A DNA stretch of 63,728 nucleotides, counting the filler, from Folioceros fuciformis (taxonomy: Eukaryota): NCBI GenBank assembly GCA_049999805.1. It is 8 parts of 8 records of this genome, joined end to end, with 100 filler letters (N's around TTAATTAATTAA, not from the genome) between each part and the next. Parts side by side here need not be neighbours in the genome. Positions count along the whole stretch, not along the records: positions 33,522 to 43,838 come from JBNGIO010005656.1; 7 more parts are not named here. The stretch is one strand, 5' to 3'. Positions 2,025-56,259 of this stretch are shown in pieces (the first letter of the stretch is position 1; each line of letters begins with the position of its first letter). Under the pieces are notes generated by a model that saw only the letters and a list, made by a program, of their open reading frames with translations, did no database searches and had not been told where the DNA came from. Both the position numbers and the translations under genes were made by a program.

Positions 2025-2036
2025 TGGTATCAGAGC
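2025..2036 (+). promoter_or_regulatory. tRNA-iMet primer binding site
   Basis: TGGTATCAGAGC directly after the LTR. Confidence 0.9.
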
Positions 2037-2040
2037 GGTA

Positions 2041-2217
2041 ATGGAGGATGTGTCGCCACCGCGCGAGAGCAACATCTGCAAGAGTTTGAATTGCATTAGA
2101 AATTTGAGCCTCAAAGAATTTCATGCAGCAATCTCTGCACTCCGAGTATCTCTTACCCGATTTGGCGCAATGGCCGACACCTTTCTTGCAAGCGCCGTTA
2201 GTCACTACTACGACTGA
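2041..2217 (+). CDS. Copia leader ORF1, 58 aa, unknown function (below the ORF-track length cutoff)
   Basis: Hand translation MEDVSPPRESNICKSLNCIRNLSLKEFHAAISALRVSLTRFGAMADTFLASAVSHYYD*; homologous to 36239-36418. Confidence 0.75.
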   Translation: MEDVSPPRESNICKSLNCIRNLSLKEFHAAISALRVSLTRFGAMADTFLASAVSHYYD

Positions 2218-2226
2218 CTGCGCGTG

Positions 2227-2968
2227 ATGCCGAGAGCGCGAGGTAGAGCCACGCATTTGCCTGCAGACCCCTTTCTTGGCTGTCGCAGTGTGCCAGAGGA
2301 CGTGCACAACCAGAATCTCCACCGGTTCTTTGCAACACTGCAATTTCAATCCCCTGCACACGCACATAGATCACAAGCGTCAGCATAGGTGTCAGGATAG
2401 GCGTCGCACAACCCAATTCCATCAGCGACACCTGAAACCAGATCCTCTTGCTGCCCTTAGATGCCAAGTTCGATAGAATATCCAGAACGCACGCATAATT
2501 CCTGAACAGAGAGCACGCGAGCTTGCACGTTCTAAGTCTTATGATTTCACAACATTTACCGCACCAGGTTATGACTTCGTGGCAGGATTGTCAGGTCTGA
2601 TTGAGGCACACACAGCCAGAGTGGATGCACTGTTGCGAAATCACTCAGAACAAGTTCGCCAGCGCTCTGTGCACCTGTCCAGTGAAATCACACGTCTTAG
2701 TACACACATTAGGACCCTTTCTGGGCACGTCAAGAATTTGCTGCAGATTTCCTTGAAGAATTCTAGTCTGGATCTTACCTCAGAAGGTGCAACGCCCACA
2801 CCGGTTCATATCTCGAACGCACCGATTCAAATCCCAGTCGCACCGGTTCAGACCTCGCAGCAAGAACAAGAGCAAGACACACAGCTTATGAAGATGATTC
2901 ATGCCATGCTTCTGTGCAGTACCGGGCAACCAAGATCACTTGAGCCTGAACCAACTAGAGCCTTGTAA
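2227..2968 (+). pseudogene. Copia leader ORF2, coiled-coil-like, disrupted
   Basis: Starts MPRARGR..LPADPF, frameshifts into KPDPLAALRCQVR*..LIEAHTARV..HIRTLSGHVKNL..PVHIS..LMKMI; homologous to 36429-37070 and 43226-43838. Confidence 0.7.
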
Positions 2969-2976
2969 GACTGTAC

Positions 2977-3704
2977 ATGCCAAGGGGCAAAAGTCGCGGT
3001 AGAAGTAGAGGCAACTCACCTTCACCTAACTTCTTAGATCCACTCTCTCTCTTTGCTGCTTCATCTTCACAAGGTAGCAACACTTCTAGAGTAGATCCAG
3101 CCCTTGATCGCATTCAGCGAGCACGTCTCAAGAAGGCACTAGCAGATGCACGTAAGAAGCAAGCTGAGTTAGTAGCAGCTACCCTTGCAAATCAGATCAT
3201 AGTAAACATGGTCACTCCAGTTATTACCAACCTGAAGATAGATTTCAAGGAAAAGGACCGCTTCTCAGGGTCCCAGTTTGATATTTGGTCACTTAGAGTC
3301 CAGACAATTCTAAAAGAGAATGGCCTGTGGGGAGTTGTCACGGGAACCGTACCTAAACCAGCTGGACCCACTGTGACCGCTGCACAAGTCGAAGCTTGGG
3401 AGAAACTGGACCTGAGAGCACTTGGAGTGATCCAGTCCGCATTGGATGGATCAATGATGTCTCATACACAAGATGTGGAGAATACAAAAGAAGCTTGGGA
3501 CTCACTCACACATACATATCAAGTAAGCAACGGCTCATTGCTGGTTGGAGCTACAAGAGCGTTCTATACTTGTAAAATGTGTGAGAATGAACCAATGGAT
3601 CAACATGTGGTGAAGTTTCGACAGTTACGATCGAAGCTTACCTCAAGTGGGACGAGGACCACGGAGATGCAGGCAGCAGTTGCCCTCCTTCTCTCTCTTC
3701 CTCC
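2977..3704 (+). CDS. Ty1/copia gag, truncated by gap
   Basis: FSGSQFDIWSLRVQTILKENGLWGVV..AWEKLDLRALGVIQ (UBN2-type gag); close to 42211-43215. Confidence 0.9.
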
Positions 3705-3804
3705 NNNNNNNNNNNNNNNNNNNNNNNNNNNNNNNNNNNNNNNNNNNNTTAATTAATTAANNNNNNNNNNNNNNNNNNNNNNNNNNNNNNNNNNNNNNNN
3801 NNNN

Positions 3805-4843: not shown

Positions 4844-4897
4844 TATGAAATGATAGCATCTTTCTAGCCTTAAATTGTACTAACTCTCACTTACATT

Positions 4898-6547: not shown

Positions 6548-7136
6548 AGTAATGGCATAAGTGAAATAAGGTGAAAGTTAAAAGTAGAAAGGTGAAAGCT
6601 AAATCTAGAGCTGTCTTGATGAAGAAGCAAGTATGCTTCTTACTGCCTTTGGAAAAAAAATGTGTGTTCCAGGCAAAACCTCCTAAGAAGGATGGAGTTG
6701 TAATGACCACTAGTATTCTAGGATGAGTGGTGTGTATCATTCCCAGTTTTAGCAGTGGCTTAGCTGTGGAGTATAAATAGGCCAGTGTTAGGGTCTTAAG
6801 GATACGGTGATACACTGATACACAAAGAGGCAGACAGTGAGAAGTCTAGCCTGGAGGCATAGCTGTGGAGGGCTTGAAGAGCAAGCTTGTCAGATAGAGT
6901 CGAGGGCAGTAGCCAGTGGGGCGTAGATCGCCAGACTCTTTGTAAGTATCTGGAATAAAGAGCAGCACCTAGAGGAGGTGGTCTGCGAGTCGTCAGTGGA
7001 CGGCGGGCTACTTGGAGCCTAGTGCTGAGTCGTGTGAGAGGGAGTGAGTGAATTGCAAGTGGAGCGCTGCGGAGTGTTTAGACGAGATTCGAGGCCGTTG
7101 CTTCCTTTTACGCTGCGTAAGGAAGGGGGCGTTACT
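6548..7136 (+). repeat. 5' LTR of gypsy element
   Basis: Near-identical to 11720-12308; starts AGTAAT, ends GTTACT; TATAAATA at ~6772, AATAAA at ~6954. Confidence 0.95.
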
Positions 7137-7140
7137 TAGT

Positions 7141-7152
7141 TGGTATCAGAGC
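7141..7152 (+). promoter_or_regulatory. tRNA-iMet primer binding site
   Basis: TGGTATCAGAGC 4 nt after the LTR end. Confidence 0.92.
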
Positions 7153-7254
7153 ATAGTCTATTCCTCCAAGATGGCTAAGCGCTAGAGGATGCAAATACGA
7201 GAGGTTTCCCCTAATCCCCCGCCTCAATAACTCGAGGAAAATCAAGGCAAGGAG

Positions 7255-8355
7255 ATGCCGCCTACCGACTCAGCAGGGCCATCCGGAGACAAATCTGAAG
7301 ATTGGAAGACGCAGATGATGGTCGCTTTACGACAAATTCTCCCCGAAATATTGCCGGAAGTTCTCCAAGATTTGACAGCATCTGGGAAAAAGGCAAGGAA
7401 GGATCCACAGCCTATAGCTCTACAAAATGAGGAAGCGGAAGACAATCAAGATCCTTTTCATATCTTCGAAGCAGTTCCGAGGGCAAATCTGAAATTGACC
7501 GTGCCAGATAAGTATGAGGGAGTAAGGGATCTACAAGCTATTGATTCCTGGATTTACTCTATTGAAAGCTATCTTGCTTCATCTGGCCTGGAGCCTAAGC
7601 ATTACTTAGGAACTGTGGGCAACTTTCTCAAAGGGTATGCTTTGGTGTGGTGGCGAAGTTATTGTGCTAATGTAGCCCAGGGAAATCGAGCACACACCAT
7701 CACAGACTGGGCATCTTTCAAAGAGGCCTTGAAGAAGCAGTTCCAACCTGCGAATGCTTTACGCTTGAGCCGGCAGCTGCTTGATAATATAAAGCAGACA
7801 GGTACCGTACGAGAATATGTAGGTACATTCAGTGAAGCTGTTATGCATTGTACTTCAATGAGTGAAGTTGACAAACTACATCGCTTCATGGTTGGTTTGA
7901 AGGACTGGGCTGCTAACAGAATTGAGTTGTATAGTCCAATGACCTTGGCAGAGGCCATAACAGCAGCAGATGCTATCTCAGATACCTTTCATTCCAACAC
8001 ATTCAACTCCTTAAGAAGATTTCGAGGTAATACCCGTGGACGGTATATGCAAACTAGGGTTTCTTCCAATAATGTTGCAAGAGGGACTCCCAAGGATAAT
8101 GAAAGGAGTACAGTTGTAAGAGGCAACTCCAGTGCGAGCTTCCGTGGGAGAAATCGAGGAGTGCGCAGGGGGCGCGGACCTCAGAGAACAGTGACAATGG
8201 GTTCTCGGAAAGGAGTTTGTTTTGCTTGTGGAGAGCCGGGACATTACGCGAATGAATGCCCCAATACTCAACAAACTTTGAATGTTGTTCAAGACAACCC
8301 ACAGCCCCAAAGACTCAGGATTACAGAAGTATCCGGATCTGAAAATCCCAAATGA
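7255..8355 (+). CDS. Gypsy Gag (retrotransposon gag domain plus CCHC knuckle)
   Basis: LKGYALVWW..WASFKEALKKQF..IKQTGTVREY; CFACGEPGHYANEC. Confidence 0.93.
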   Translation: MPPTDSAGPSGDKSEDWKTQMMVALRQILPEILPEVLQDLTASGKKARKDPQPIALQNEEAEDNQDPFHIFEAVPRANLKLTVPDKYEGVRDLQAIDSWIYSIESYLASSGLEPKHYLGTVGNFLKGYALVWWRSYCANVAQGNRAHTITDWASFKEALKKQFQPANALRLSRQLLDNIKQTGTVREYVGTFSEAVMHCTSMSEVDKLHRFMVGLKDWAANRIELYSPMTLAEAITAADAISDTFHSNTFNSLRRFRGNTRGRYMQTRVSSNNVARGTPKDNERSTVVRGNSSASFRGRNRGVRRGRGPQRTVTMGSRKGVCFACGEPGHYANECPNTQQTLNVVQDNPQPQRLRITEVSGSENPK

Positions 8356-11300
8356 CGGGATTGGCCACATGTTGCACAGGCTACATGTGGTGACTCTCAA
8401 GATGCTGAGGACAGCATTATTCATAGGGCAGGTGGAGAGCTCATGTATATAGAAGGATGTGTGAATCGTGAAGAAGCGAAGATGTTGCTTGATCTAGCAG
8501 CAACACATAATTTCATTTCTCCTGGCAGAGCAAGTAAGCTCGGTTTGACATGGGCTAGTATTTTAGAGCCATGTACAGTGAAACAAGCAAAAGGAAAGCT
8601 GCAGTTCTTAGGACAGCTAGAAAAAGTTCCTTTGCAGATAGGCAATTGGACTGGACAAGCAAGCTTCACAGTTGTAGATATGGATGATCATGAAATCATT
8701 TTGGGCTTAGAATGGATGAAGGCCAATAAGGTATGTGTAGACGTGGACTCACGCACCATACAGATCGTAGGAGATGAAAAGCACAAAGTGAGTTGTGCAG
8801 TCCTTGAGCATCAGCTTGGGCACAAGATTGATGAAGTCATCTCTAAGAAAGAGCTCAAGCGTTGTGTCAAAAATGGAGAGGAACTCTATTTGTTGGTGTT
8901 GCAAGGACTAGAAGATGGTCTTGAGATGGAATCTCAGAAGCAACCAAAGATTCCAAAGGAGATACAGGATGTCTTAGATGAGTTTAAAGACTTAATGCCT
9001 ACTGAGTTACCTCCTTTACCTCAACGGAGAGTTGTAGATCATGAAATTGATCTAAAGCCAGGAAGTGTACCGCCATCAATAGCGCCATATAGATTGTCGC
9101 TAGATGAGCTTCAAGAATTGAAGAGACAAATGTCTAACTTGTTAGCCAAGGGCTATGTTAGAGTCTCAAAATCCCTATTTGGTGCGCCAGTATTGTTTAC
9201 GCGAAAGAAGAATGGAGGATTAAGGTTATGCTTGGATTACAGAGCACTCAACCAGATAACAGTCAAAAATTCCTATCCTTTGCCAAGGATGGATGATATG
9301 TTTGACAGGTTGAAAGGTGCTAAGTATTTTACCAGACTGGATTTGATGGCTGGTTATTACCAGATTCGCATCGCAGAAGGACATGAATACAAAACTGCTT
9401 GTAGGACAAGGTATGGATCTTTTGAATTTCTAGTCATGCCATTTGGACTCACTAATGCACCAGCCACATTTCAGACTCTCATGAATAGTATATTCAGAGA
9501 TCTGTTGGATGAGTGTGTTGTGATCTATTTGGATGACATTTTGATATTCAGTTCTACCTTAGAGGAGCATGTCCAACACTTGAGGAAAGTGTTGGAAAGG
9601 TTAAGGGCAAATTCTTTGTTCTTAGCTATAACAAAGTGTGACTTTGTTAAGGAAGAAATAGACTTCCTTGGATTCATTGTCTCTGCTGATGGAATCAGGA
9701 TGGATCCTGGTAAGGTAAAAGCCATACAGAGTTGGCTGCCGCCAAGCAATGTGCATGAAGTGCGTATGTTTTTAGGATTGGCTAGCGTGTACAGAAGATT
9801 TGTACCAATGTTTGCCAAAATTGCTGCCCCATTAACTGATCTCTTGAAGAAGGTGAAGACATGGAAGTGGGATGAAGAATGTCAAAGGGCATTCGAGTTT
9901 CTCAAGTTGAAACTCAGCACTACCCCAGTACTAGCAATCTATGATCCAAAGAAATATATAGAGGTGTATACTGATGCGTCAGATACAGCTATTGGAGGAG
10001 TGCTTATGCAAGAAGGTAGGCCAGTGGCTTACGAATCAAGAAAGTTGCATGAACATGAGAGGAAATACCCCACATATGAGAAGGAGATGACAGCCGTCAT
10101 CAATTGTCTCAAGATTTGGAGGCACTATCTTCTCGGAAGATCTTTTGTGCTGTACACAGATAATGTAAGTACAAGCTTCTTTTCTAATCAACTACGACTA
10201 AATGCTAGACAAGCAAGATGGCAAGATTTCCTAGCGATGTATGATGTGGAGATTAAGTACAAGCCAGGGAAGGAAAATCTCGTGGCAGATGCTCTTAGTC
10301 GCAAGCAGGAGTTGAGTTTAATGTCTGTTTTTAAGCTGAAGAATCCTAAACTAGCTACAACGCGGATGGTGATTGAGCCAAGGGACACTCACACGCAGAT
10401 TAAAGAGGCTTATTTGCATGATCCATTAGTGCAAGATTGGATCAACGAGATGGAGCAACCGGGGTCTAAGTTTAAGCTTAGAAATGGCTTGTTAATGTTC
10501 AAGCAAAACAGGATTGTGATTCCTGATTCTCAAGAGTTGAGAAAAAAGTTGCTTGCAGAATGTCACGATGTGTTAAGTGCTGGTCATCGGGGAATTGACA
10601 CAACTTATGAGAAGTTGAAGAAGCTGTTTTACTGGCCTGGAATGTACAAACATACTGTAGAGTATGTGAAGTCTTGTGTAGACTGTCAGCAGGATAAAGT
10701 AGAGCAGACAAATCCACGAGGTTTGTTGCAACCCCTGCCTATTCCAAGTGGGCCTTGGAAGAGTATATCAATGGATTTTGTTATGCCATTGCCACCCAGT
10801 AATGGATACACAGCTATCATGACAGTTGTTGATAGGTTCAGCAAGCAAGCACACTTTATCTCCACGAAGAAGCAAGTGAAGGCTTTAGAAGTTGCTCAAT
10901 TGTTTAAGAAGCATATCTATGTGTTACATGGATTGCCTATGCAAATTGTGAGTGATAGAGATCCCAGATTCACAGCGGAAATTTGGCAACAGCTTATGAA
11001 GAGCTTGGGAGTGCAACTATGTCTAAGTACAGCATATCACCCTGATACAGATGGATCTACAGAAAGAGTAAACAGAATCCAAGAGGAATACTTACGACAC
11101 TATGTACAAATGGACCAAAGGAACTGGAGTAATCATCTTGAGGATGCAGAGTTTTGTTATAACAATACTGTACATAGCTCCACAGGCTATACACCTTTTC
11201 AGATGACAGGTAACGAAGCAATGGACGCAGTTTCCATGTTGAATGCTGACGTGTTTGAGACAGCAGCAAGAGAACCACGTGAATTTATTGAGCAGTTAAG

Positions 11301-11709
11301 CGCCAGGCATGAAATTGCTAAGAGGATTTTGGCCAAAGCTCAAAACAGGCAAAAGAAGTTTGCTGATAGGCACAAGAAAGAGGCAGAATTTCAAGTGGGT
11401 GACAAGGTTTGGGTAAAGTTGAAACACTTCCCAGTACCTCAAGGATTGTCCCCAAAGTTAAGGCCTAAGTATGGAGGTCCTTTCGTAGTTCTAAAGCGCA
11501 TTGGGAATGTGGCTTACAAACTACAACTGCCTAATTGGATCTTCTCTCATGATGTGTTTCATGTCTCTTTGCTGAAACCGTTTGTGATTTCGAAAGAGAA
11601 TGACGACATGAACAGATCTTGTCTGGGTTTCACTTCAAGATGTGCAACAAGGATCATGGATGATCTCACGTTATACTGCAGGTCATTGAGGACAATGACA
11701 TCTTCCTAG
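8356..11709 (+). CDS. Gypsy Pol (PR-RT-RNase H-INT), in frame with gag
   Basis: LLDLAATHNF protease, YLDD RT, TDASD RNase H, HHCC zinc finger, ISMDF..SDRD..E integrase, YGGPF; frame open from 8356, first ATG at 8443. Confidence 0.95.
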   Translation, partial: RDWPHVAQATCGDSQDAEDSIIHRAGGELMYIEGCVNREEAKMLLDLAATHNFISPGRASKLGLTWASILEPCTVKQAKGKLQFLGQLEKVPLQIGNWTGQASFTVVDMDDHEIILGLEWMKANKVCVDVDSRTIQIVGDEKHKVSCAVLEHQLGHKIDEVISKKELKRCVKNGEELYLLVLQGLEDGLEMESQKQPKIPKEIQDVLDEFKDLMPTELPPLPQRRVVDHEIDLKPGSVPPSIAPYRLSLDELQELKRQMSNLLAKGYVRVSKSLFGAPVLFTRKKNGGLRLCLDYRALNQITVKNSYPLPRMDDMFDRLKGAKYFTRLDLMAGYYQIRIAEGHEYKTACRTRYGSFEFLVMPFGLTNAPATFQTLMNSIFRDLLDECVVIYLDDILIFSSTLEEHVQHLRKVLERLRANSLFLAITKCDFVKEEIDFLGFIVSADGIRMDPGKVKAIQSWLPPSNVHEVRMFLGLASVYRRFVPMFAKIAAPLTDLLKKVKTWKWDEECQRAFEFLKLKLSTTPVLAIYDPKKYIEVYTDASDTAIGGVLMQEGRPVAYESRKLHEHERKYPTYEKEMTAVINCLKIWRHYLLGRSFVLYTDNVSTSFFSNQLRLNARQARWQDFLAMYDVEIKYKPGKENLVADALSRKQELSLMSVFKLKNPKLATTRMVIEPRDTHTQIKEAYLHDPLVQDWINEMEQPGSKFKLRNGLLMFKQNRIVIPDSQELRKKLLAECHDVLSAGHRGIDTTYEKLKKLFYWPGMYKHTVEYVKSCVDCQQDKVEQTNPRGLLQPLPIPSGPWKSISMDFVMPLPPSNGYTAIMTVVDRFSKQAHFISTKKQVKALEVAQLFKKHIYVLHGLPMQIVSDRDPRFTAEIWQQLMKSLGVQLCLSTAYHPDTDGSTERVNRIQEEYLRHYVQMDQRNWSNHLEDAEFCYNNTVHSSTGYTPFQMTGNEAMDAVSMLNADVFETAAREPREFIEQLSARHEIAKRILAKAQNRQKKFADRHKKEAEFQVGDKVWVKLKHFPVPQGLSPKLRPKYGGPFVVLKRIGNVAYKLQLPNWIFSHDVFHVSLLKPFVISKENDDMNRSCLGFTSRCATRIMDDLTLYCRSLRTMTSS

Positions 11710-11719
11710 TGGGGAAGAG

Positions 11720-12308
11720 AGTAATGGCATAAGTGAAATAAGGTGAAAGTTAAAAGTAGAAAGGTGAAAGCTAAATCTAGAGCTGTCTTGATGAAGAAGC
11801 AAGTATGCTTCTTACTGCCTTTGGAAACAAAATGTGTGTTCCAGGCAAAACCTCCTAAGAAGGATGGAGTTGTAATGACCACTAGTATTCTAGGATGAGT
11901 GGTGTGTATCATTCCCAGTTTTAGCAGTGGCTTAGCTGTGGAGTATAAATAGGCCAGTGTTAAGGTCTTAAGGATACGGTGATACACTGATACACAAAGA
12001 GGCAGACAGTGAGAAGTCTAGCCTGGAGGCATAGCTGTGGAGGGCTTGAAGAGCAAGCTTGTCAGATAGAGTCGAGGGCAGTAGCCAGTGGGGCGTAGAT
12101 CGCCAGACTCTTTGTAAGTATCTGGAATAAAGAGCAGCACCTAGAGGAGGTGGTCTGCGAGTCGTCAGTGGACGGCGGGCTACTTGGAGCCTAGTGCTGA
12201 GTCGTGTGAGAGGGAGTGAGTGAATTGCAAGTGGAGCGCTGCGGAGTGTTTAGACGAGATTCGAGGCCGTTGCTTCCTTTTACGCTGCGTAAGGAAGGGG
12301 GCGTTACT
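11720..12308 (+). repeat. 3' LTR of gypsy element
   Basis: Follows PPT AGTGGGGAAGAG; followed by CCACC. Confidence 0.95.
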
Positions 12309-35230: not shown

Positions 35231-36238
35231 ATGCGGCTTAGTAGGGTTTTTCTTTTCTTTTCTTTTTTGTCATTTTTCTATTTGATTTTTACTAATTAGG
35301 TTAGTTGACCAGGAAATAGTTGCTGTGGTTAGTAGAGTGGTTATAGGTTTGGTACCAGGCCTAAGGAAACTTAGCTTTGGTACCATATCTTAGGTTTGGC
35401 TTAGTCTTAGGTCCGGGCATAGGTTTGGTTTTCAACCTGGTAATATTTCATTAATATGTAATTCACTTAATTCTTTTAGATAATATTAAATAATTGAATA
35501 ATTAAATACTAGTTTGAATAAGGTGGCTACCTCACAAAGGGAATCTATGCAAGTGAGGTGGTGTCTCACCATTAAGGGATAGGCTAGAAGCCAGCTAGGT
35601 CGGCTTGTAGGGCATAGCAGTAAGAGGAACATGAATACCAGCAATGAGGTAATGACGGTCTAGGTTGAGGAGTCAGAGCCCTGGCCATGGTGAGTTGTGG
35701 CATGGGACACCACCAAAACACAACACTGTGGAGACAATGGCCATGATGGTGCACTTGGTGGAGTGAGCCCAGCCAGATGCGAGATTGAGGGTACATTGGC
35801 GGCTATCCAAGCAAGGTTACGGGATTTGGGACTTTATGACAGAAAATCGCACAAGCAGAGATCAGCATGGGGCACTGGCTATCACATTGGGCTCTGTTAG
35901 CAAAGAGCAGAACTTGATCCTTAGGCTCTACTAGCTGAGAGCAGAACTCAATCCTTTGGTCTAGACGCAGGGGTGCTCGTGTGTCAGCTGCTGACCAAGA
36001 GAGGATGGGAGATTGAGCCATACAACAAGAGGCCTGGACACGAGCATGAGTTCCATAAACGTGAGTTGCTGGAGAGCGCATGCTAATGATCAACAAGTAG
36101 GATGTCATATCCGGCAGGAAGGCACTGCGAGCTGCCGATCGAGACCATTGCAGAGCTAGCTAAGGGCAATTGGGCTTGAACCAGTTGGGAATCGTGAGCA
36201 AAATTCTCGATCCTCTCGATCTTCATGGTATCAGAGCC

Positions 36239-36418
36239 ATGATGGACTCTGCCGGGCTTCCAATCATCTGCGCAACCTGCAACAGCGCAAATTGCGTCAA
36301 GAACTTGCCACATCAACAATTTTGCGCTGTAATTGCTACATTGAAGGCTGCGCTCACAACATTTGGAAGTATGGCAGACGTCTTCCTTGCTAGCGCTGTT
36401 GATCACTACTACTCGTGA
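36239..36418 (+). CDS. Copia leader ORF1, 59 aa
   Basis: MMDSAGLPIICATCNSANCVKNLPHQQFCAVIATLKAALTTFGSMADVFLASAVDHYYS*; homolog of 2041-2217. Confidence 0.75.
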   Translation: MMDSAGLPIICATCNSANCVKNLPHQQFCAVIATLKAALTTFGSMADVFLASAVDHYYS

Positions 36419-36428
36419 TCTCAGCGCT

Positions 36429-37070
36429 ATGCCGAGAGCTAGAAGCCAGAGAAACCCCCTGCCATCATACCCCTTTGCAGGCAGATCTGGTGAAACAATT
36501 GAATCACAGCATAGGAGACTGAACCATTTCTTCACGAATCACTATCAAGTCCTTGCATGCCCTACACACACACACAGCGTAGGTCTCATTAGGCAACATT
36601 CTCAGCCCAACCCCTTGCACAATTTACATCGTTAAGTTAGACAGCAAATCGCACACGCTCGTGACATTTCTGCACAAGCTGAATATCAACTGCAGGCACG
36701 TTCTAGTATTTGTAACACTTGTACTAGAGACCTTAATTCTTTTCCATGCCCGTCAGACAACTTGCTCATTGACATTTATGATCTTGTAAAATCTCAAACT
36801 GTCAAGGTTAGGTAGCACATCTCAGAGTTGACCCACAAGGTTCAAGCACAAAATAGACACATCACCTGCCTGTCACATCAGATCAATAATCTCTGCCTTG
36901 ACAAACCTACGTCTCTTCAAGGAAAGACAACTGTACCTGTTCATATCTCACCCGAAGAACAAAAACCGCAGTCAGATTTAGAGAAAATGATCAAAGTCAT
37001 GCGGGAGGCATTTGCTAAGGACTCTGAACACCTAACTGCACTGGAGGAAGAGGCCGGGAGACCACTCTGA
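36429..37070 (+). pseudogene. Copia leader ORF2, ~213 codons, two in-frame stops
   Basis: Single frame MPRARSQRNPLPSYPF..PNPLHNLHR*VRQQI..KVR*HISELTHK..PVHISPEE..LEKMIKV..LTALEEEAGRPL*. Confidence 0.72.
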
Positions 37071-38038
37071 GCAAGCGGCATATGTCAAGCAGTGGAAGAG
37101 CTCGAGGAAATCCAAATCCTTCACATAGAGCTCGTGGTCGAGGTAGGGGCAGAGGTTCGAGGTTATGGGAGAGGAATTCATTACGGTAGTGGTCCTTCCA
37201 TGCCTATAGACCCTCTCTCCCTTTATCAAACCCAGAGCCAACCAACCTCGTCCCAATCAAGTAACACTGTACCTACAAATTTGCACACTGCACAGGTTCA
37301 ACATGTTGCACAAGCTGGAGCAGTAGTTCAAAACACAGAAGCTGCACGTCTTGCACAAGCCACAAGGGCTGTGCATTAGCGGCACAAGTAGTGGGCACAA
37401 TGGCTGGTCAACAGCACAGTAGCACAGTTACCAACAACACTACTGTTCACAATCTCAAGATAGATTTCAAAGAACGTGACCAATTTTCAGGCACTCAATT
37501 TGACATATGGGGACTTAGGGTTCAGACTATCCTGAAGGACAATGATCTTTGGGGTGTTGTTTCCGGGACTATCCCTAAACCTACTGCTACTGCTCCACTT
37601 GCTGATAGAGAGGCATGGGCCAAACTAGATCTCTGTGCCCTAGGAGTCATACAATCAGCATTGGACGGTATAATGATGCACCATACTCGAGAGGCAAAAT
37701 CCACAAAGGCTGTTTGGGATGCACTTTCACAAGTCTACCAACTTGTTAATGGATCCTCACTTGTTAGTGCAACGTTGACATGACTTCTATAACTGTAAAA
37801 TGAGAGAGCATGACTATGTAGAGCAGCATATTATTAAATTCAGGACCTTGAGGTCCAAATTACCTCAAGTGGAACCAAGACCACGGAGATGCATGCTGCG
37901 GTGGCTCTGCTTCTCTCTCTTCCTAAAAGCTTCCGCACATTCGTCAGCAATTAGAGTTCAGCACTCCGGCAAGCAGCCCAAGCTGCACAAGTAGCTCAAC
38001 CAGGAAGCCAACCAGCTGTTACACTTTCAGATGGTATC

Positions 38039-38293
38039 TAAAGCTTGTAGGATCGAGAGAGCAGGCAAGCTAGATTAGAGAATAGGAGGATAGATTAAGG
38101 AAGAGCCGTGTGGCTCCTTAAATAGTCACGAGACCAACCGTTGTGGTGTCCCGTGGCCGTGAAAGTGCGTGACTGTTGTGTTTTGAGTCGGAACCCTTTA
38201 GTTGTGTCGATTGTAATCTACCCGTTTACTATCTGCCCTAAGTATTATGTAATTAAGTAATGCTGGATAAATAACTATTATTCTTAACCTTTA
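38039..38293 (-). repeat. 3' LTR of copia copy C (255 bp)
   Basis: Follows PPT AAGTGAGAG; TAAAG...CTTTA inverted termini; homologous to the LTR at 1793-2024. Confidence 0.8.
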
Positions 38294-41200
38294 CTCTCAC
38301 TTAGCCAACATTATGCTGACTAGGGTTTGTAACCATAGGTGAAAAAAAACGGCGCCGAGCTAGGTCACAGTCGATGGCGGCTTGCGCAAGGCTTTTCTCA
38401 CCTTACAGTTGGAGCTCTGTTCAGATGTTTGCCAAACTGCTTTGATAGGTTTATGTACGTCGGCTGTGACTTCACGAAAGATGGCCACCAGATACTTCGT
38501 TATGGTATGCTCCCTTGTGCTTACAATTGGTCCTCCCACTGCAGCCTTTGTAGGTAGATCCTTCTGACTGCATGCCTTTAATGTTCATGTGCAGAGCCTG
38601 GTGGCGTTGCACTACAAGGATGCCATCCAGAAGGTTCTATCCGGCTTGAGATGCTGCAGAGTGAGAGTCTGGTTACTAGCTAGGTGGACAGTGCAGGTTT
38701 CTTCTAGGACTCTGGGTCCTCCATTAACCCCATTGCAGCTGCAAATTTCTCATGCTTCTCTCTAGGAAGTGCTTTTGTGAGCAAGTCTGCAATATTGTCA
38801 TGTGTTGACACAAACTGTAGGTTAGCATGTCCATCAGTGATCACTTGTCGTATAAAATGGTGCTTGATGTCCATATGTTTTGTCCTGGCATGCATAAGAG
38901 GGTTTTGTGCTAGAGCTATCGCTGATTGGTTATCACTCAGAAGGAGTGTTGGTGCTTCCTGAGGTTCACCGAGAGATGCTAGCAATTCCCTGCCATGAAT
39001 GATATCTTGTGCTGCTGTAGTTGTAGAGATGTACTCTGCCTCTGTCAAGGACAGAGCTACCACTGACTACTTCTTTGAATGCCAAGCAATAATTTTGGAT
39101 TGTGATTCATCTTGTCCCAGCATTAAACAGTGTGCAAATATTGAGCGTCGGCTGTCAGAATCGGCTGCCCAGTTGGCGTCACAATAGCATGTAAGGAGCA
39201 GGCACTGTGGTCTTTGTTTGTACAGTAGGCCAAGATTAAGCGTACCTCCAAGATAAAGCATACACCGTTGAACAGCCGTCCAATGAGCTGCACCATAATT
39301 GGAGAGGAACTGTGAAGTCACCCCCACAGCATGTGAAAGCTCCGAGCGTGTCCAATTCTGGAAATAGATAAGTACTCCCACTGCTGGTCTGTAGGGTACT
39401 TTCTCCATTTGCATACGCTCCTTCTCAGTTTGTGGACACTGTTCCAGTGTAAGTTTTTCGCCCGTTGCCATGGGTGTTGCTGCAGGTTTTGCATTCTGCA
39501 TTCTGAACCGTGCTAGGACTTGGACAACAAATTGAGCCTGGTGTATAAAAATTGTGTGCTTGCTCAGGTTTTGACGGATCTGAATACCTAAGAACCAAGT
39601 AAGCTGCCCCAAATCCGTCATGGAAAACTCTGAAGTAAGGATACCCTTGACCTTATTCATTTGAGACGGACTACTGGATATTATTACTGCATCGTCTACG
39701 TATAAGGCCTGGTAGGCTACCCCATTCTTATCACAGAGTTGATAGACATTTGAGTCTGCACTACTTTGCACAAAACCACACTTCTGGAGGTACGTGTCTA
39801 TTCTTTTGTACCACTCTTGTGGTGACCGCTTTAAGCCATACATTGTTTTAATTAGTCTACATACCTTGTTTGGGTTCTTGGGGTCAACGTACCCCTCTGG
39901 TTGACGCATATAAATGGTTTCCTCTAGGTCTCCGTTGAGGAATGCAGTTTTAACGTCCATGTGCTGTAGAAGGTAATCGTGTTGAGCAGCAATTGCCAGC
40001 AGAGTGCGGATGGATGTTGCCCTGACCACTAGAGAAAAAGTCTCTTGGTAGTCAAGTCCTTCTACTTGGCTATATCCGCGTGCAACCAGTCTGGCTTTGT
40101 ATCGTGCAATAGTACCATCAGCAGCTTGTTTCAGTTTGAACACCCACTTGCAAGTCACTGCCTTCCGGCCAGGTGGTAAGTCCTCCAGAACCCAAGTTAT
40201 GTTGTCCATGATGGATTTGTACTCAGATTCTATTGCAGCATGCCACTTTTCCTTGTCGGGAGAGTTTATGGCTTCCTGATATGACTGGGGCTCTCCCAAG
40301 TCAAGAGGCATGTCTTCCTGTACCAAGAAACTCTGATATGTAAGTGGAGGCTGAATCCATTCATCCGGGGATGCTGCATGATGCCTTGAGCTGCGCCGAA
40401 GGACTGGCACTTCTTCAGGTACGTCCTCCTCCTGTGGTATAGGATCATCTGGAGATGAATCAGCATCTAATAGATTAGGCTGATGCTCACTAACCTCTTC
40501 AACTTCATCTTCAGGGAAGTCAGATGGTTCATCTTCACTGTCACTATCAGGGGGTACTACTGGTTGGGAGGACTTCTGAGTAGTAGTAAGATCGCCATCA
40601 TCACCTTGCTCAGCATCAGAAGGTTGAGACTGCATGTCTAACTGCGACTGTGTCAATGCAGGTGTAAGTAACAATCTCTTGTTAAACACTACACTGCGTG
40701 CATGAGTAGTTGTCCTAGTGACAGGATCTAGGAGTTTGTAGCCTTTAATGCCTTCAGTGTACCCTATGAACACAAACTTTCTTGCTTTGTAGTCTAACTT
40801 GACTCTTTGTTTTTCTGCAAGGTGTGCATATGCCGGGGAGCCGAAAATGCGTAAGTGATTGATACGGGGTTTGTCACTAGTCCAACGCTCAAAAGGTGTG
40901 CAGCGCGGGAAAGCCTTAGTGGGGAGCCGGTTCGTAATGTAGGCTGCAGTAGCAACGGCTTCACCCCAATAGCTTTGTGGGAGGCCAGCAACTTTCAGCA
41001 TGGACTTGGCTGCAGATTGCAGATGCTTGTTATTTATTTCAGCAAGCGGATTTTGTGAGGAAATATAAGGTATGGTCAGCTGCCTTTGGATTCCCAGCGC
41101 CTTGCAATAATCTTGAAAATCAGCTGAGATATACTCCCCGCCGTTGTCACTGCGCAGAGTTTTGAGTTGCTCTCCAGTTTGCCGTTGTGCAAACGAAACA

Positions 41201-43225
41201 TATTCTTTAAAACAGCCAAGCGTATGGCTCTTGTGTTTGAGGAAGTAGACAACCACATAGCGGCTCCAGTCATCAATAAAAGAGAGTATGTATAAGGCTC
41301 CACCCCAGGTAGCTGTGGACATAGGACTGCAAAGATCAGAATGAACAACCTCGAGAAGCTTGGTGGCTCGTGTAGGATTGTCATCCGTATAGGGGAGTCG
41401 CTGATGCTTCCCGAACACACATGCCTCACAGAATTACTTGTCCACAAACTGAAGCATGAATTTTTCTCTGTACAGAGTTGTGCTGGCCACCATTTGTTTG
41501 ATCTTCTCGAAATTAGCATGGCCTAGATAGCAATGCCACAGCATAGCTGCATCCTTGTCTTTCTGCTTGGTGTCCTGACTCATGTTGACTTGTGCACGTG
41601 TAGGAGGTAGACCTAGCTTAGAGGTGACATTAAGTTGATACAGGTCGTGGAATGGTGCCCCACTTGCTACTAACTTATTTTTATACTGTGGATCAGTGAC
41701 TGTACATTGTACCCCTGTAAAGGACACATTCAACAAATGCTGGGTAGTCAACTTGCGAACTGACACTAGGTTCTTCACCATTGAAGGTACGTGAAGAACA
41801 TCCTCTAAGACCAAGGTAGTTTTGTCAAATAGAGTGATAGAGACTAACCCTATCCCCTCTATTTGCATACCACTGTCATCTCCAAGCAATACGAATTGTC
41901 CAGGTGGCAATGGCTTGTACTCTATGAAAGACTTTTTGCAGTGACAAATGTGAGAAGACGCACCAGAATCTATAAACCATACATGCTTATTGGATGCGGT
42001 GGAGACCATGCATACAGCTAGTAGAGTGTTTGCCTTACGGTGTACCACATTGGATTCAGGTGGTGCCGATCTTCTGGCTTCGCCGGCCTTCTTCTTTCTG
42101 CAGTCGGCTTCCCAGTGTCCAGGAATGAGACACCAGTTGCAAGGCCCCTTCTTTTTAGCTAGAGCTTGAGGTGAACATTTCTTGTAAGTAGCGTTGTTGT
42201 TGTTTGGTGTCTAGGACTGCCTTGGTGGTTGTCTCCTGGGCCCCTTGTTTGCGTAGAGCGCCCTTGTGGATGACTCTCCTCGGGAGGAGGTGCCGCCTTG
42301 ATTGACAATTCTGGTGGACTCCTCCTCGAGAAGAGCTCCAATCACTTCAGATAATGTGACAGTAGGAGCCTGTCCTGCTGATGTATTCTGGGCTGCAACA
42401 CGCAGTGCAGAACTCAGGTTGCTTACAAAAGTCCGGTAGCTGGGAGGAAGAGAGAGAAGAAGAGCAACTGCCGCTTGCATCTCCGTGGTCTTTGTTCCGC
42501 TTGAGGTAAGCTTAGACCTCAGTTGTCTAAACTTCACCACATGTTGCTCGACTGATTCATGTTCACGCATCTTGCAGTTGTAGAATGCTCTTGTGGCGCC
42601 AACCATTGAAGAGCCATTGTTAACTTGATAGGTATGCGTGAGAGAGTCCCATGCTTCCTTGGTGGTAGCCACATCTTGTGTATGTGACATCATAGATCCA
42701 TCTAGTGCAGACTGGATAACAGCAAGAGCTCGAAGATCGAGCTTCTCCCAAGCCTCAATTGCAGTAGGAGTAGAAGTAGCAGCAGGAGGTTTGGGTACAG
42801 CACCAGTGACTACCCCCCACAGCCCATTTTCCTTGAGAATAGTTTGTACTCTAAGAGACCAGATGTCGAACTGAGTGCCAGAGAAGCTGTCCTCCTTAAA
42901 GTCTACTTTCAAGGTAGTGACAACAGGTACTTGATTGGCCATTGTATTGATTACTTGTGATGCAAGTGTTTGTGCGACCAATGCTGCTTGGTCTCTACGT
43001 GTATCTGCTAAGGCTTTCGCAAGACGTGCTCTTTGAATGGCAGCTAGTGTTGGATCTACAGTATCTGAACTACCTTGTGATGAGGACTGGGAATAAAGTG
43101 AGAGTGGATCTTCAGGTAATGTGTTAGATACAGGTATGACACCCCTGCCTGTGCCTCTGACTTTTCTAGTACCTTTCGGAACCTTACTTCCACGTCCTCG
43201 GGCGTTGTATGACATGTACAGGGGT

Positions 43226-43838
43226 TCACAAAGGTAGTGCAGCCTCAGCTTCAAGGGCTGCCAGCTGCTCCACGTGGCTTGGATAATATTTCTGAATAAC
43301 CTTGATCATCTTCATGATTGGTCGTTCTTCTTCTTCTTCTTGTCGAGATGTGAATTGGTGCACTTGTGATATGAACCGGTGCGAGTGAAGAAGACTCAGG
43401 TGCAGAATTTTTCAAGGATAACACTGTAAGATTCTTAATCTGTCCTGTCAGTGTTCTAATGTGAGTATTAATGTTGTTAATCTCATTGGACAGGTTTACG
43501 AATCGCTGCCACACCTGTGCAGCGTGAGTCGCAAGTAGATTGTGGACTTGAGCTGTCTGTGACCTAATCAAATGGAGCACCTCTATCAGCGACCTATCGG
43601 ACAGTGCGGGTGATGCTTCAGTCCTAGGATGTGCAAACTGACGTCTTCTTTGTTCAGAAAAATCGCGTGATTCGTGAAACCTTTGCCTAATCTGGCTTCT
43701 AGGTGAGACAGGAGAGTCAGATTTCTGGTGTCGCTAACAGGCTTGTGCTGTGTGACGCCTATACTAACTCTTCTTGACTTTGTGCGTGTGTAGAGGATAG
43801 AGATTGCAATGCGTGTCAAAGAAGCAATGCAGATTCTG
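43226..43838 (-). pseudogene. Copia leader ORF2 remnant of copy C
   Basis: RSQIRQRFHESRDFSEQ..LIRSQTAQV..HIRTLTGQIKNL..PVHITS, frameshift, then IMKMIKV..EQLAALEAEAALPL*. Confidence 0.72.
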
Positions 43839-44319: not shown

Positions 44320-44642
44320 TTCATTGATTGCAGAGAGTATCTGCCAACACTTATTCATTGATTGCAAACAGTATTAGCCAATGTAATCATTGCGAAGTTG
44401 ATTGCAAACATATTAGCCCATGCAATCATTGTAAAGTTGATTGCAAACGGTATTAGCCAATGCAATCATTGCGAAGTTGATTGCAAACAATATTAGCCAA
44501 TACAATCATTGCAAAGTTGATTGCAAACAGTATTAGCCAATGCAATCATTGCTTCGCGAAGAGTATTAACCAATGCAATCATTGCTTTGCAGAAGTATTA
44601 GCCAATGCAATCATTGCTTCACAAAGAGTATTGGCCAATGCA
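44320..44642. repeat. ~40-bp then ~30-bp tandem array
   Basis: TTGATTGCAAACAGTATTAGCCAATGCAATCATTGCGAAG units at ~44358, 44398, 44437, 44477, 44517, followed by shorter units. Confidence 0.92.
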
Positions 44643-46313
44643 GTCTTTCAAAAAGCAACAAATGTTAGTAATACAACAACTTCTTGGGCATCAATAGTAG
44701 GTAGACTTTTTGTTATTTTGGAATGATTCATGCAAGTCTTTTGACTTCTTTGGCACCAATCCGACTTCGGTAAATAATCTTTACTTGGGGATTTAAAACT
44801 TCTTTTTTTTTTGGATTCCTCTAGACAATTTATACTTCAAAACTGTGTCAAATAGATCCTTGTAGTCTCTAAACTTGGAGGCCTAAAGACATTTTAACTT
44901 AAAAAGGAAGGAATTATTTTTTCTTCTTCAAAAAAACCAAAAAAACAAATTACTCCCAAAACATGCACGTGGAATATTTTAAAGTAAGAGGAACATAAAA
45001 ATAGCGTGCAAGCTTGTAAACAACGATCCGAGTATAGTTGATGTTTAAGTTTCCATCGTTTAAAAATAAGATCATCACATGTCTTTGAAGAACTTCTACC
45101 GAAGGTGAAGACTTTATTGTATCATGTGAGTGATAGATAAAGTAATTCTTCACAACGTTTAAATTTTCCACCCCTATATCGTGGTAGGGATGGCATTGGT
45201 ACTTCTTCTTCAACCTACCTTGTTAACAAGCTCTTCAACTTGAGGGAATAGTGAATACCACCCTAACCCTTCAATAGGGACAAAACCCTAAACCTTTGAT
45301 ATCTTCCTTTTTCTTAGCACTTTCTACTTCTCCAAGTCTACCAGAAACTTTGAAGCCATTCATTCCTCTTGTTCCATTTACCTACCCAACCATAGCCGGC
45401 TAAATATCATACCTAGACTGCCACCCAATGGTAGTCCTTTATGAAAGAAACGAGCTTTCTCACATGGCAATTTGTCACACTTCTCTCTTTTGCCCTTTAA
45501 TCAATGTCTAGTGCATACAAGTATTGTGGCTATATCAAAGCACCAAAGCTCCTTCTATGGGTAGGAAGCATGCACACCATTCATCTTAACGTAGCACCAA
45601 AGCAAATGCTAAAAATGGGAAGCGTGCAAACCATTCATTTAGGGAGAGACTAGTGATTGATTGCTACTACTTCAATTTCATGGAACACCACTCATTTGAG
45701 GAGATGCTAGTAATTGCTACAACTTCAATTCCATGGAACGCCTGTCATTCGAGGTTCCCTTATGGGCTTGCACCATGTTTTGTGCTAAAATGTGAAACAT
45801 TTTGATCATATTTGTGGACAACTAATAATATTTTTTTAAATCCATGGAACCGCGGAGAATGTACCTTTTGAGAAGATCCCAATAACCAATTAGGGAATTC
45901 CCATTTATCCCATTGTCTACAGTAATAAGAAATGGGAGTAGGGCCAAAGGTCCCATTTAGTAAGGGCTGACTATAGAACCCTATGCACAACACATTTCCT
46001 TCAAGGGGGGTGTCCTGTTTTAGTTTCCTTAATTAATAGATTAAAAAGTTAATGATGTAAACATTAAAGTAAATCAAAAAAATTAATCAGTACATATTAG
46101 TTAGTGTAATTAAAGTAATTTTGTTCATAGTTGCTTAAAAGTGATCACTCTCTCTAATTATTGCTTAAAAGTGATCATTCTCTCTAATTATGACTAGAAA
46201 CTTGTATGATAAAGAAAACTAAAGATAAATAAAAAAAGGCTTATCTTATAGTCTTCTACCCACACCTATGCGTACATAATCATTAACAATACAAACGTTT
46301 TCGAAGCTTTGAG

Positions 46314-48689: not shown

Positions 48690-48792
48690 CAGCACCCTAC
48701 AAAAGTGGATCGGTCAACTTCTAAAACCAAAAGCCCCCTACAAAAGTGGATTGGTCAGCTTCTAAAACCAAAAGCCCCCTACAAAAGTGCAT
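48690..48792. repeat. 42-bp tandem repeat, about 2.5 copies
   Basis: CCCTACAAAAGTGGAT..CTTCTAAAACCAAAAGCCC units. Confidence 0.85.
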
Positions 48793-48799
48793 CAATCCA

Positions 48800-51062
48800 C
48801 TCTTTATCAACTGCCTATGTTCCACCTCACCGTCTTTTTCTTCTTACACACAACTTCCTCCAAACCAACAAATTGTTTCAGTCTGTTTGTGCCCTCATTC
48901 TCAACAAAAGTTTCCAACACTTGTTTCCGTTGAGGTTGTTCGTATGCCTGTGCCACTAATTGTCTCACCTTCTGTTGAGTTTGCTCCATAATGCAGGCTA
49001 TCCCAAAAGCTAAATCTGAATGCTCAAATGCGGTATCACATACTTCAGTACATGCCATTTTAATAAAATCCAACCATTTTTCTTTTGCCATCTCCAATTC
49101 TGTCTTACATATTGGTGCCACCTAGGGGTTACTAGGCAACACAATGCCTCTTAATCCTGCATCCAAAAAGCCATACCCAAGTTGTTGGTATCACTACTTT
49201 CAGCAACATACGCTCCATCTGTTTTCCATTTTGCCTAGCTGCTGCTGCACCATCCTTGTATATGCCAAGGAGTTGTTGAACTTTCACCACATGTTTGCAG
49301 ATGAAACCTTTGTTCCCCATTGGACATGAGCAGGTAACCCAAGGAGAGTAAACATGTTCAATCACATACGACAAGTTAGGGGTCGATAAAGACAAACAAT
49401 GTGCAGCAACATTTTCGGCATGCGGTAAAATAATTGAGCTAATAGAAATAGTTTCTGCACCCTTCATAGCGGTTTCCTCTAAAGCCTCTAGCTTCTTGTT
49501 ATGCTTGTATCCCCCTTCTTTCGTGAAGTGCTGGTACCAATAATGTCGGGCAACCACATTCACTAATTGGTGTAGTAACCAGTCTCGTCTACGGCCAGGC
49601 AAACTTGACTTGCTAAATGCTGCACGTTCTTTTATAAATCTATGGAATCCTTCCACAACTGAAGTTGTATGTTGCCTTGCATGACGCAACATTCTAGCAT
49701 TACACAACCACATATCTATAGGCTCTCCCCATTGGACCTTCATATATCTCACAAAGTCTCCTTCACTTGTTCCCCACTTGTCATAAAAATTGTGTAGCAT
49801 ACTTCTTCCTATGGAAACACACTGCGAAGATGTGCTTGCCCCTGTGACATACATAATATCCCCTAGCTCTGCCCATATTGAAATTCGATTACTTTGTGAG
49901 TGCACTTTGTTCAATAAATTCTGTCTCCACGCTTTCCGCAAATGCCACAAGCATAATAATATAGGCATATTATGATTCCACACTGAGCGAATAGCGGAAA
50001 TCTCTACCTGACAATCATCAACAGGAATGAACTAGGTGTCCAATCCTTGTTGATCTTTTCAACCTTCTTCCGTAAAGCTGAAAGCCACCTGAAAAGTGAC
50101 TTAGTAGTAGCATCTTTTGTAATAGCCCATGCTACTAGAACACTGTTCAAGTAATGGTCAAAAACCATCATAGTGAATAAGTGATAGCGATACCTGTTCA
50201 ATCCAAAAGTTGCATCCATAGCTAGCACATTACCATTCCCATAAAGCAACATGCAATTTAACATAAAAGGAGTTTGAATACCCAAAGCGAACGGTTGATT
50301 CTCGCTTGATTGGTGGAAGACTATAGACACATTTTGCTCCAACCACAGGGACACTGATATGGCATCATCCGGGGCTAGCTTCCATTCACCAACTTTAACT
50401 TGTGTAAGTATATTGAGAACATCATATCTTTGCATATAATCATCTCTTACTAGCTCATATACCTCTGTCTGATTAATGATTCAAGCATACAATGCATCTT
50501 GATGCCGACGCATTATTTCATCAACAGGAACTTTGCAATATAGGCAATGCCTGATCCAATCCTTCTTTTCCTGTGAAAGCCATGCTGCTCTGACATAATG
50601 GGGTAAGCCTTCGTACCCAAGCCCATGACATGTAGCATTTGAAAGGTCAATATGCCTATGTTCAAAAAGACCAATCTCAGCAACCGTAGGCCACACAAGA
50701 AGTTTCTTCACCCTAAAATTTGCTTGGCAACCATGCTTGACACTCTCTCCATGGAGGACCTTACACTTAGCTATATTAACACCACGTGACACTCCCACCT
50801 CCTTTTGACGAAAGTCTTCTGGGTCGTAAGAACACCAATACCTGCAAGCCAACCTCACAATGTTAATGCCTCCCTAAGTAATAAAACAATTTGCATACTT
50901 CAAACCTTTTTACCTAACATATAATGCAGCTATATGCACTACCGGCCCCTTAGAATCCTTCTTGTAGAAGTTCGTAGGATGGTAACTTATAGCACTCATT
51001 CCCCCAATAAAGTCTCCCACTCTAGAAAAGAGTATGTGAGCCACCTTCACATGTTTTTGCTG
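48800..51062 (-). mobile_element. MULE-type transposase with SWIM zinc finger, disrupted
   Basis: GCQANFRVK..HIDL..CHG; AMDATFGLNRYRYHLFTMMVFD; LCLWHLRKAW; TTSVVEGFH; CSC..FICKH. Confidence 0.85.
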
Positions 51063-55519: not shown

Positions 55520-56130
55520 CGTGTAGAAGGTGTTGTGAGGAGACTTGTGGGGAAAGGTGCTGGGTGTAGGTAGTTGGAAGTTGGTACGGGGAGATACTGG
55601 GGCCCTTCCAACTGAAGGAATGGTGTCTTCCTACTGACTAGACGTGTTGAAGGTACGCGCTAGGAAAGATTGAATGTCGTAGGCAAACGATAAACAGAGT
55701 AGGAGGGAGCTGAGTAGGCTCGGAGGAAAACTTGTTGGACGCTGGGCCTAGGGAGACGAGCAGCTAGATTGTGGATAGAGGAAGGTGTTGTAAGGAGCCT
55801 TGTGACGAAAAGGTATTGAGTGTAGGGAGGTATAAATCGGTAGGGGAGGTACTGGGGCCCTTCCAAGTGAAGGAATGGTGCCTACCTACTAACGGGACGT
55901 GCTGCAGGATTGGTAGGAACGTGATTGGAAGGTAGAAATTGGTAGCGGAGGTACTGGGGCCCTTCCAAGTGAAGGAATGGTGCTTGCCTATTGACGGGAT
56001 GTGTGGCAAGATTGGTAAGAACGTGATTGGAAGGTAGAAATCGGTAGGGGAGGTATTGGGGCCTTTCCAAGTGAAGGAATGGTGCCTACCTACTGACGGG
56101 ACGTGTGGTAGGATTGGTAGGTATGTGGTT
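55520..56130. repeat. 102-bp tandem units within a ~255-bp higher-order repeat
   Basis: ACTGGGGCCCTTCCAAGTGAAGGAATGGTG-like motif at 55596, 55851, 55953, 56055. Confidence 0.9.
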
Positions 56131-56259
56131 GGGTGAGCTGACTATTGTAGGGGAGCGATAAACGTAGCTGACTAGGCTCAGAGGGGAGCGATTCCGGGGA
56201 AGCCTACAGCAACCGTGGGATTCATGTGGCCACGATACATGTGAGCGGGTGCCAGGTAG

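Follow-up and report, generated by a model that had tools for sequence, protein, structure and literature searches.

A second accessory gene between the primer-binding site and gag in a Ty1/copia clade of Folioceros fuciformis

The window and its three copia copies

The DNA analysed here, called the window, is a stretch of 63,728 nucleotides, filler included, from the genome of a single plant, Folioceros fuciformis (assembly GCA_049999805.1), and consists of eight contigs placed end to end. Seven identical 100-nt N-TTAATTAATTAA-N linkers mark the joints, at window positions 3705, 27491, 33422, 43839, 51063, 58806 and 61484; as the joining is artificial, neighbourhood across a linker is meaningless. 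Three Ty1/copia copies, designated A, B and C, are present. The clade to which they belong carries two accessory genes between the primer-binding site and gag, in the order primer site, ORF1, ORF2, gag-pol, and it is the second of the two, ORF2, that is treated here. The features of the three copies are listed below.

Copy B
36226..36237, plus strand: primer-binding site TGGTATCAGAGC, assigned by sequence
36239..36418, plus strand: ORF1, 59 aa, intact; a CxxCxxxxC..H motif, then a predicted helical hairpin (dN/dS 0.15)
36419..36428, plus strand: spacer of 10 nt from the ORF1 stop to the ORF2 ATG, read from sequence
36429..37070, plus strand: ORF2, 213 codons with stops at codons 69 and 129; basic N-terminus, CxxC, predicted long heptad helix at about residues 108-156, C-terminal helix
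37071..37081, plus strand: spacer of 11 nt from the ORF2 stop to the gag ATG, read from sequence
37082..38039, plus strand: gag with an RG-rich N-terminal extension, decayed (frameshifts, stops)

Copy C
38040..38297, minus strand: 3' LTR, about 260 bp, inner end approximate
38704..43215, minus strand: gag-pol (gag, protease, integrase, reverse transcriptase), a single frame with in-frame stops
43226..43838, minus strand: ORF2 remnant, its stop 10 nt upstream of the gag ATG

Copy A
2025..2036, plus strand: primer-binding site
2041..2217, plus strand: ORF1, 58 aa, intact
2227..2968, plus strand: ORF2 with one frameshift and one stop, 9 nt after ORF1 and 8 nt before gag
2977..3704, plus strand: gag, truncated by the contig end

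The gag of copy B is interrupted exactly where the 3' LTR of copy C begins (38040), and copy C is therefore nested head-to-head in copy B; the end sequence of this LTR recurs before the primer site in the relative L004. The TGGTATCAGAGC site, which we take to be of the initiator tRNA-Met type, lies 12-24 nt upstream of ORF1 in most relatives examined. The ORF2 of copy A starts with MPRARG at 2227 and ends with TAA at 2968, while that of copy C ends with TGA at 43226 on the minus strand, contains two stops and one frameshift, and has lost its 5' end at the contig end (43838/43839).

A sequence-only reading of the window had placed a homologous protein at 2227-2968, 36429-37070 and 43226-43838(-), and all three were indeed found, together with the heptad segments, the PVH(I) and KMI motifs and the L.ALE.EA..PL ends that it had described. 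The likeness among copies far exceeds what chance would give: when 159 aa of copy C were searched against the genome, 14 of 27 scored candidates matched, several of these being two pieces of one element. The limitation to three copies proved too narrow, since all three are real but the gene is a feature of a large clade in this genome. That copy B is one frame broken only by a TAA and a TAG was also borne out, these being codons 69 and 129, with no other break in its 213 codons. A 94% identical sister of copy B is open at both of these codons and has stops of its own at codons 59 and 181, and transitions account for 31 of the 42 differences between the two; such private stops and transition-rich differences are expected for independent decay after insertion. 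Copy B retains only about 37 nt of the LTR found in this sister, and a DNA contig that links 36241 to 37436 has 22 letters only on one side, which is too weak to use.

Several unrelated features were noted elsewhere in the window. A Gypsy element with 300-bp LTRs that are 99% alike occupies 6548-12019 (+), and its gag (7231-8355) and pol (8356-11709) form one frame with a single stop between them. At 4217-5548, a Myb/SANT-like ORF (+) faces a DDE_Tnp_4 ORF (-), a pair that we take to be the remnant of a PIF/Harbinger transposon. A 610-codon open frame at 29055-30887 (-) has a weak nSTAND3 NTPase match (E 2e-4, below cut-off), and arrays of tandem repeats, with unit lengths of about 33-41 nt and 102 nt, occur at 44331-44650, 27644-27806, 48691-48813 and 55570-56132.

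Coding constraint and clade distribution

The survey set comprised 52 copies that have both a gag core and an ORF2-like start, one of which belongs to a sister clade. ORF2 was open for at least 170 codons from the MPR start in 23 of the 52 and broken before codon 170 in 29; at full length it is about 188-243 aa long. The M-P-R start is invariant among 18 aligned copies that share 21-37% identity with copy B. When 15 copies were scored, CxxC was present in 10, a four-heptad segment had 7-8 of its 8 a/d positions hydrophobic in 13, and the net charge was positive in all. The predicted model is a chain of helices, in which the long helix (residues 108-156) has a pLDDT above 90 and no confident packing is seen (pTM 0.31). 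ORF2 and gag share a similar basic start (MPR.RGR and MS..RGRG, respectively), the two reading MPRARGR and MPRGKSRGR in one subfamily.

The sequence-only reading had taken ORF2 for a real accessory gene and had proposed dN/dS as a check, and purifying selection was indeed found. By codon models, applied to open or nearly open copies in protein-guided alignments at 21-37% identity, a choice that biases omega down, dN/dS was 0.23 for ORF2 (15 copies, 186 codons), 0.03 for the gag core and 0.02 for RT (8 copies each), and 0.15 for ORF1 (15 copies). Fixing omega at 1 in ORF2 lowered lnL by 175 units. Its shifted sense frames, on the other hand, gave values of 1.3 and 2.2 with many stops, and the in-register antisense frame gave 0.49, which is the usual shadow. 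Because of the downward bias due to open-frame choice and protein alignment, a comparison on DNA only was added. A gap-free ORF2 pair of 73% identity differed at 39, 24 and 89 first, second and third codon positions (dN 0.19, dS 1.39), and a second pair, of 69% identity, at 56, 44 and 86, its three indels (33, 3 and 3 nt) all being multiples of 3. Over all 15 DNA pairs at 55-90% identity the position counts were 1052, 904 and 1327; indels were a multiple of 3 in only 70 of 188 cases, because DNA alignment fails at that distance. It is to be noted that a pair of 98% identity had no third-position bias (4/7/3), as expected for post-insertion change. With its own stop kept as well, ORF2 qualifies as a genuine accessory gene under selection, the second of two in a copia clade of this one plant genome, and we regard its reality as a selected gene as nearly certain. 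Selection of this kind also suggests that the protein is produced. ORF2 is a separately stopped gene, fast-evolving yet selected, whose product has a basic RG-type start, an often-kept CxxC and, as predicted from sequence and model, a four-heptad coiled coil.

Its partner, ORF1, gave 89 matches among 95 scored candidates in this genome, and 81 of the 89 were examined (79 retrieved plus copies A and B; 8 were left out). Of the 75 copies with a placeable start, 63 have an intact ORF1 of 52-64 aa. ORF1 keeps the CxxCxxxxC..H pattern and terminates in H-Y-Y-x-stop; its predicted model is a helical hairpin (pLDDT 86).

The Pfam order in copy C (PF14223, PF22936, PF13976, PF00665, PF25597, PF07727) is that of Ty1/copia, i.e., gag-protease-integrase-RT. 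Relatives have the primer site before ORF1, a purine run before the 3' LTR, and nine LTR pairs of at least 200 nt; the 88-98% identity of these pairs implies that transposition in the clade extended over a long period. Immediately before the primer site, 37 of 61 copies have the dinucleotide TA and 17 have CA, and several LTRs of the clade start with TA or GT, which is non-canonical, and are short (about 230-265 bp).

A quick gag tree of 84 rows, with SH-aLRT support only, a midpoint root and most rows picked through ORF1, contained a 64-row clade (support 98), in which 51 rows had both ORFs, 6 had ORF2 only or were cut short with ORF2 present, 4 were too short to tell, and 3 had neither ORF. 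Among the other 20 rows, 12 formed a clade in which ORF1 is accompanied by a different second ORF, 6 matched neither profile and 2 were short, the outgroup sample being 8 short stretches only. A check picked through gag alone yielded 20 loci without a listed ORF1 match, and among the 13 with at least 800 nt upstream, ORF2 was found in 10 (E <1e-20) and neither ORF in 3. The presence of ORF2 follows one gag clade, among the loci picked by gag alone as well.

Other 5' ORFs were observed outside this clade. Members of the sister clade (L073, L086, L091, L110, L116, L118, L197) have an ORF of 186-233 aa located about 320-360 nt after ORF1. It starts with M(P/L)RN(G/S)R, contains CxxC and a coiled coil and, in those copies that were checked, extends about 60 nt past the gag start; profile comparison with ORF2 gave a weak match (probability 13%, E 0.002, 67 columns). 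The spacer after ORF1 in L081, L082, L086, L091, L103 and L106 contains a short, often broken frame, MDP.T.(V/L)GRLQFLA..TRPDL, which we take to resemble a copia RT motif and which is perhaps a captured piece of pol. Outside the clade, L196:756-1073 (-), L201, L141 and L199:1366-1854 (+) have an MPR- or MPH-starting ORF of 105-162 aa with a short heptad segment between the primer site and gag; against two MPR-starting ORFs of other clades, the ORF2 profile gave probabilities below 3%. Such 5' ORFs may be common among the copia elements of this host. The host genome also gave 32 matches to light-harvesting genes, with top scores against entries that we take to be land-plant Lhcb.

Junctions and the predicted translation route

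A feature missing from the sequence-only reading is the tightness of the stop-start junctions. In all of the 56 copies selected by a first AUG within 45 nt of the ORF1 stop and an ORF2-like start, 5-13 nt separate that stop from the ORF2 ATG. Gaps in all three frames occur (21/12/23), and the ORF1 stop codon is TAG in 27 copies, TGA in 24 and TAA in 5. The distance from the ORF2 stop to the gag AUG was 8, 8, 8, 8, 8, 9, 10, 11, 12, 12, 14 and 22 nt in 12 hand-picked full-length copies, in five of which the gag AUG was assigned by likeness, the gag frame being broken downstream; it was 8, 11 and 10 nt in window copies A, B and C. This downstream AUG opens the RG-rich extension of gag. Since the spacing is kept while the frame and the identity of the stop are free, read-through and fixed frameshifting are excluded, and termination-reinitiation fits. 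ORF1, ORF2 and gag-pol would accordingly lie on a single genomic RNA and be translated by termination and re-initiation across the 5-14 nt spacers, a route that we consider somewhat probable on sequence grounds; the tight packing may mean that ribosomes stop and restart twice on one RNA.

It is rather unlikely, in comparison, that the genes, although real, are served otherwise, with leaky scanning, splicing or internally initiated transcripts giving access to ORF2 and gag, and compact packing alone accounting for the short spacers. Scanning finds some support in the number of out-of-frame AUGs, which in a count over related, non-independent copies was about 0.6 of expectation in ORF2 (46 observed, 70 expected) and ORF1 (13 and 23) but not in gag (78 and 82), and in 5 of 12 copies whose ORF2 has no AUG within its first 290 nt. 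Badnaviruses and RTBV, moreover, scan through two small ORFs before their polyprotein (PMC5902531). However, scanning of the RTBV type requires AUG-free ORFs, whereas each of the 12 ORF2 copies has 3-11 internal AUGs, and stop-restart therefore fits better than pure leaky scanning; the ORF1 start, furthermore, has G at +4 in each of the 12 copies. A shared splice acceptor was sought by offset only, and no AG occurs at a common offset before either the ORF2 or the gag start (at most 5 of 12).

Termination-reinitiation has its own difficulties besides the AUG depletion, in that the spacing differs in the sister clade, as given above. The motif TGGGA, which we take to be the TURBS core, was absent from all 12 first junctions and present at 3 of 12 second junctions; this search thus identified no restart signal, and other signals are possible. 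Without a helper, ribosomes that have translated ORFs as long as 58 or 200 codons usually re-initiate poorly (PMC5902531). By analogy with the caulimovirus TAV protein, ORF1 or ORF2 might itself be the re-initiation activator of a three-gene LTR retrotransposon whose essential gag-pol is reached only via two rounds of termination and re-initiation. We consider this improbable; the available part of a 2018 review knows of no TAV-type activator outside Caulimoviridae (PMC5902531).

Possible roles of ORF2 and comparison with known systems

The basic start, the CxxC, the coiled coil and the fixed place before gag favour a helper role. ORF2 would oligomerise through its coiled coil, its basic end would bind the RNA or DNA of the element, and it would act with Gag in the assembly of the particle or ribonucleoprotein. 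From composition and analogy, the only basis here, such an assembly or nucleic-acid helper is put forward tentatively, as a proposal that falls just short of evenly balanced. The explanation as a whole, namely paired accessory genes, translated by stop and restart, with ORF2 as a putative oligomeric, nucleic-acid-binding assembly helper, we regard as evenly balanced.

The main rival on function gives ORF2 (or ORF1) a host-facing role instead, for example as a silencing suppressor or a chromatin-targeting adaptor. Anti-silencing proteins are known from plant transposons. ORF2 evolves about eight times faster than gag and varies freely in length, both as in conflict genes, and a basic start with CxxC would suit a nuclear protein. 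Nonetheless, coiled-coil linkers also usually change fast, and no homologue, family or fold in support was found, so that we consider this role unlikely. An ORF2 profile run against 1.84 billion representatives gave two matches, both long repetitive proteins aligned in 4-5 stretches, which we read as generic coiled-coil matches. A word-indexed search found none for ORF2 (2697 candidates) or ORF1 (85 candidates) in sets poor in plant repeats, from which the absence of homologues does not follow. No Pfam family occurred in more than 1 of 18 ORF2 or 2 of 32 ORF1 members, the best E in a PDB sequence search was 0.23, and phage records held no ORF1 match. The ESM Atlas returned, for ORF2, unnamed Streptophyta clusters of ~173 aa (best 0.83), to be taken as a lead only, and nothing for ORF1. 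Fold searches of solved and viral structures, made for ORF1 and for ORF2 (model pTM 0.31), yielded only generic matches, to coiled coils at Z <=5.8 and to helical hairpins at Z <=4.4.

Three further readings fare much worse. ORF2 might be the N-terminal part of Gag, split off by decay or joined by read-through or frameshift, and copy L135 does have it in frame with the gag core, while in a few copies its frame extends beyond the gag start. But L135 lacks about 390 nt (the end of ORF2 and the start of gag) relative to its relative, and its fusion is thus a deletion; the stop is held at the same place before a new AUG, and spacers of 8, 9, 10, 11, 12, 14 and 22 nt mean that all frames occur. In-frame fusion to gag, which would have spoken against a separate gene, is therefore not the arrangement of this clade, and we hold the Gag-part reading very improbable. 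An env-like protein is hardly credible, as the sequence-only reading had already judged: Env proteins likewise have a coiled coil (PMC4408406), but ORF2 lies 5' of gag, both in the three window copies and in the clade at large, not between pol and the 3' LTR, its start is basic, unlike a signal sequence, and its best Kyte-Doolittle 19-mer scores 0.21-1.36 in 15 of 15 copies, none exceeding 1.4, so no membrane span is seen. Finally, a non-coding leader or neutral captured fragment with incidental frames, for which the 29 early-broken copies and a protein without relatives in public sets might speak, is refuted by the selection tests, given the third-position bias, the frame-keeping indels, the invariant MPR start and a dN/dS far below 1 across subfamilies with synonymous sites near saturation, and its probability is negligible.

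Descriptions of plant copia elements present them as uniform in structure, the 3' ORF of SIRE being the only extra gene that defines a lineage. The present clade, which is diverse and keeps two small 5' genes whose proteins have no detectable relatives, indicates that a class of accessory genes can escape surveys limited to ORFs of at least 250 codons. It further poses the question of how ribosomes gain access to gag-pol behind two AUG-bearing ORFs on the RNA of an LTR element, for which the junctions, being short and rich in natural variants, are suited to a simple reporter. A literature search, with few subscription papers within reach, found no report of an ORF1-ORF2 copia cassette; the available text of PMC7264820 treats 3' ORFs, and that of PMC2774666 has nothing on copia 5' ORFs.

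The REXdb survey counted extra ORFs of at least 250 codons (PMC6317226), a cut-off below which ORF1 and nearly all ORF2s fall. It lists 5' sense ORFs in Tekay (33%), TatII (23%) and Ogre (21%), and among copia elements only the 3' ORF of SIRE (74%), plus entries of 2-6% for Bianca and Ikeros, whose columns are ambiguous in the available text (PMC6317226). The likeness to Ogre, Tekay and TatII lies in an extra sense ORF between the 5' LTR and gag, its function there being unknown in the available accounts (PMC6317226; PMC4408406), and in Ogre-type gypsy elements (Ogre/Tat lineage IV) this ORF also has a coiled coil (PMC4408406). The elements described here differ from the Ogre/Tat gypsy type in being Ty1/copia, in having two ORFs with spacers of 5-14 nt, and in having no plant mobile domain; no Pfam family at all is common to more than one of the 18 ORF2 members. 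With SIRE they have in common a fast-evolving accessory ORF that most elements of a copia clade retain, although the SIRE ORF is env-like and 3' of pol (PMC6317226), whereas ORF2 is 5' of gag and has no membrane span.

A downstream start near an upstream stop is likewise known from non-LTR retrotransposons, caliciviruses and the TAV of CaMV. Those systems use an overlapping stop-start with TURBS or a hairpin, or a viral transactivator (PMC5902531), whereas the gap here is 5-14 nt and a TURBS-like motif is not kept. The same source describes leaky scanning, TAV and termination-reinitiation, and its available part names no LTR element for the last of these (PMC5902531).

From badnaviruses and RTBV the present elements differ in having LTRs and an integrase, and no sequence or fold match connects the two. 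The product of ORF II in those viruses is a coiled-coil, nucleic-acid-binding particle protein. Their small ORFs are cleared of AUGs for leaky scanning, whereas those described here are only partly depleted, and the likeness is one of arrangement, with two small ORFs before a capsid/RT polyprotein on one RNA of a plant retroelement (PMC5902531).
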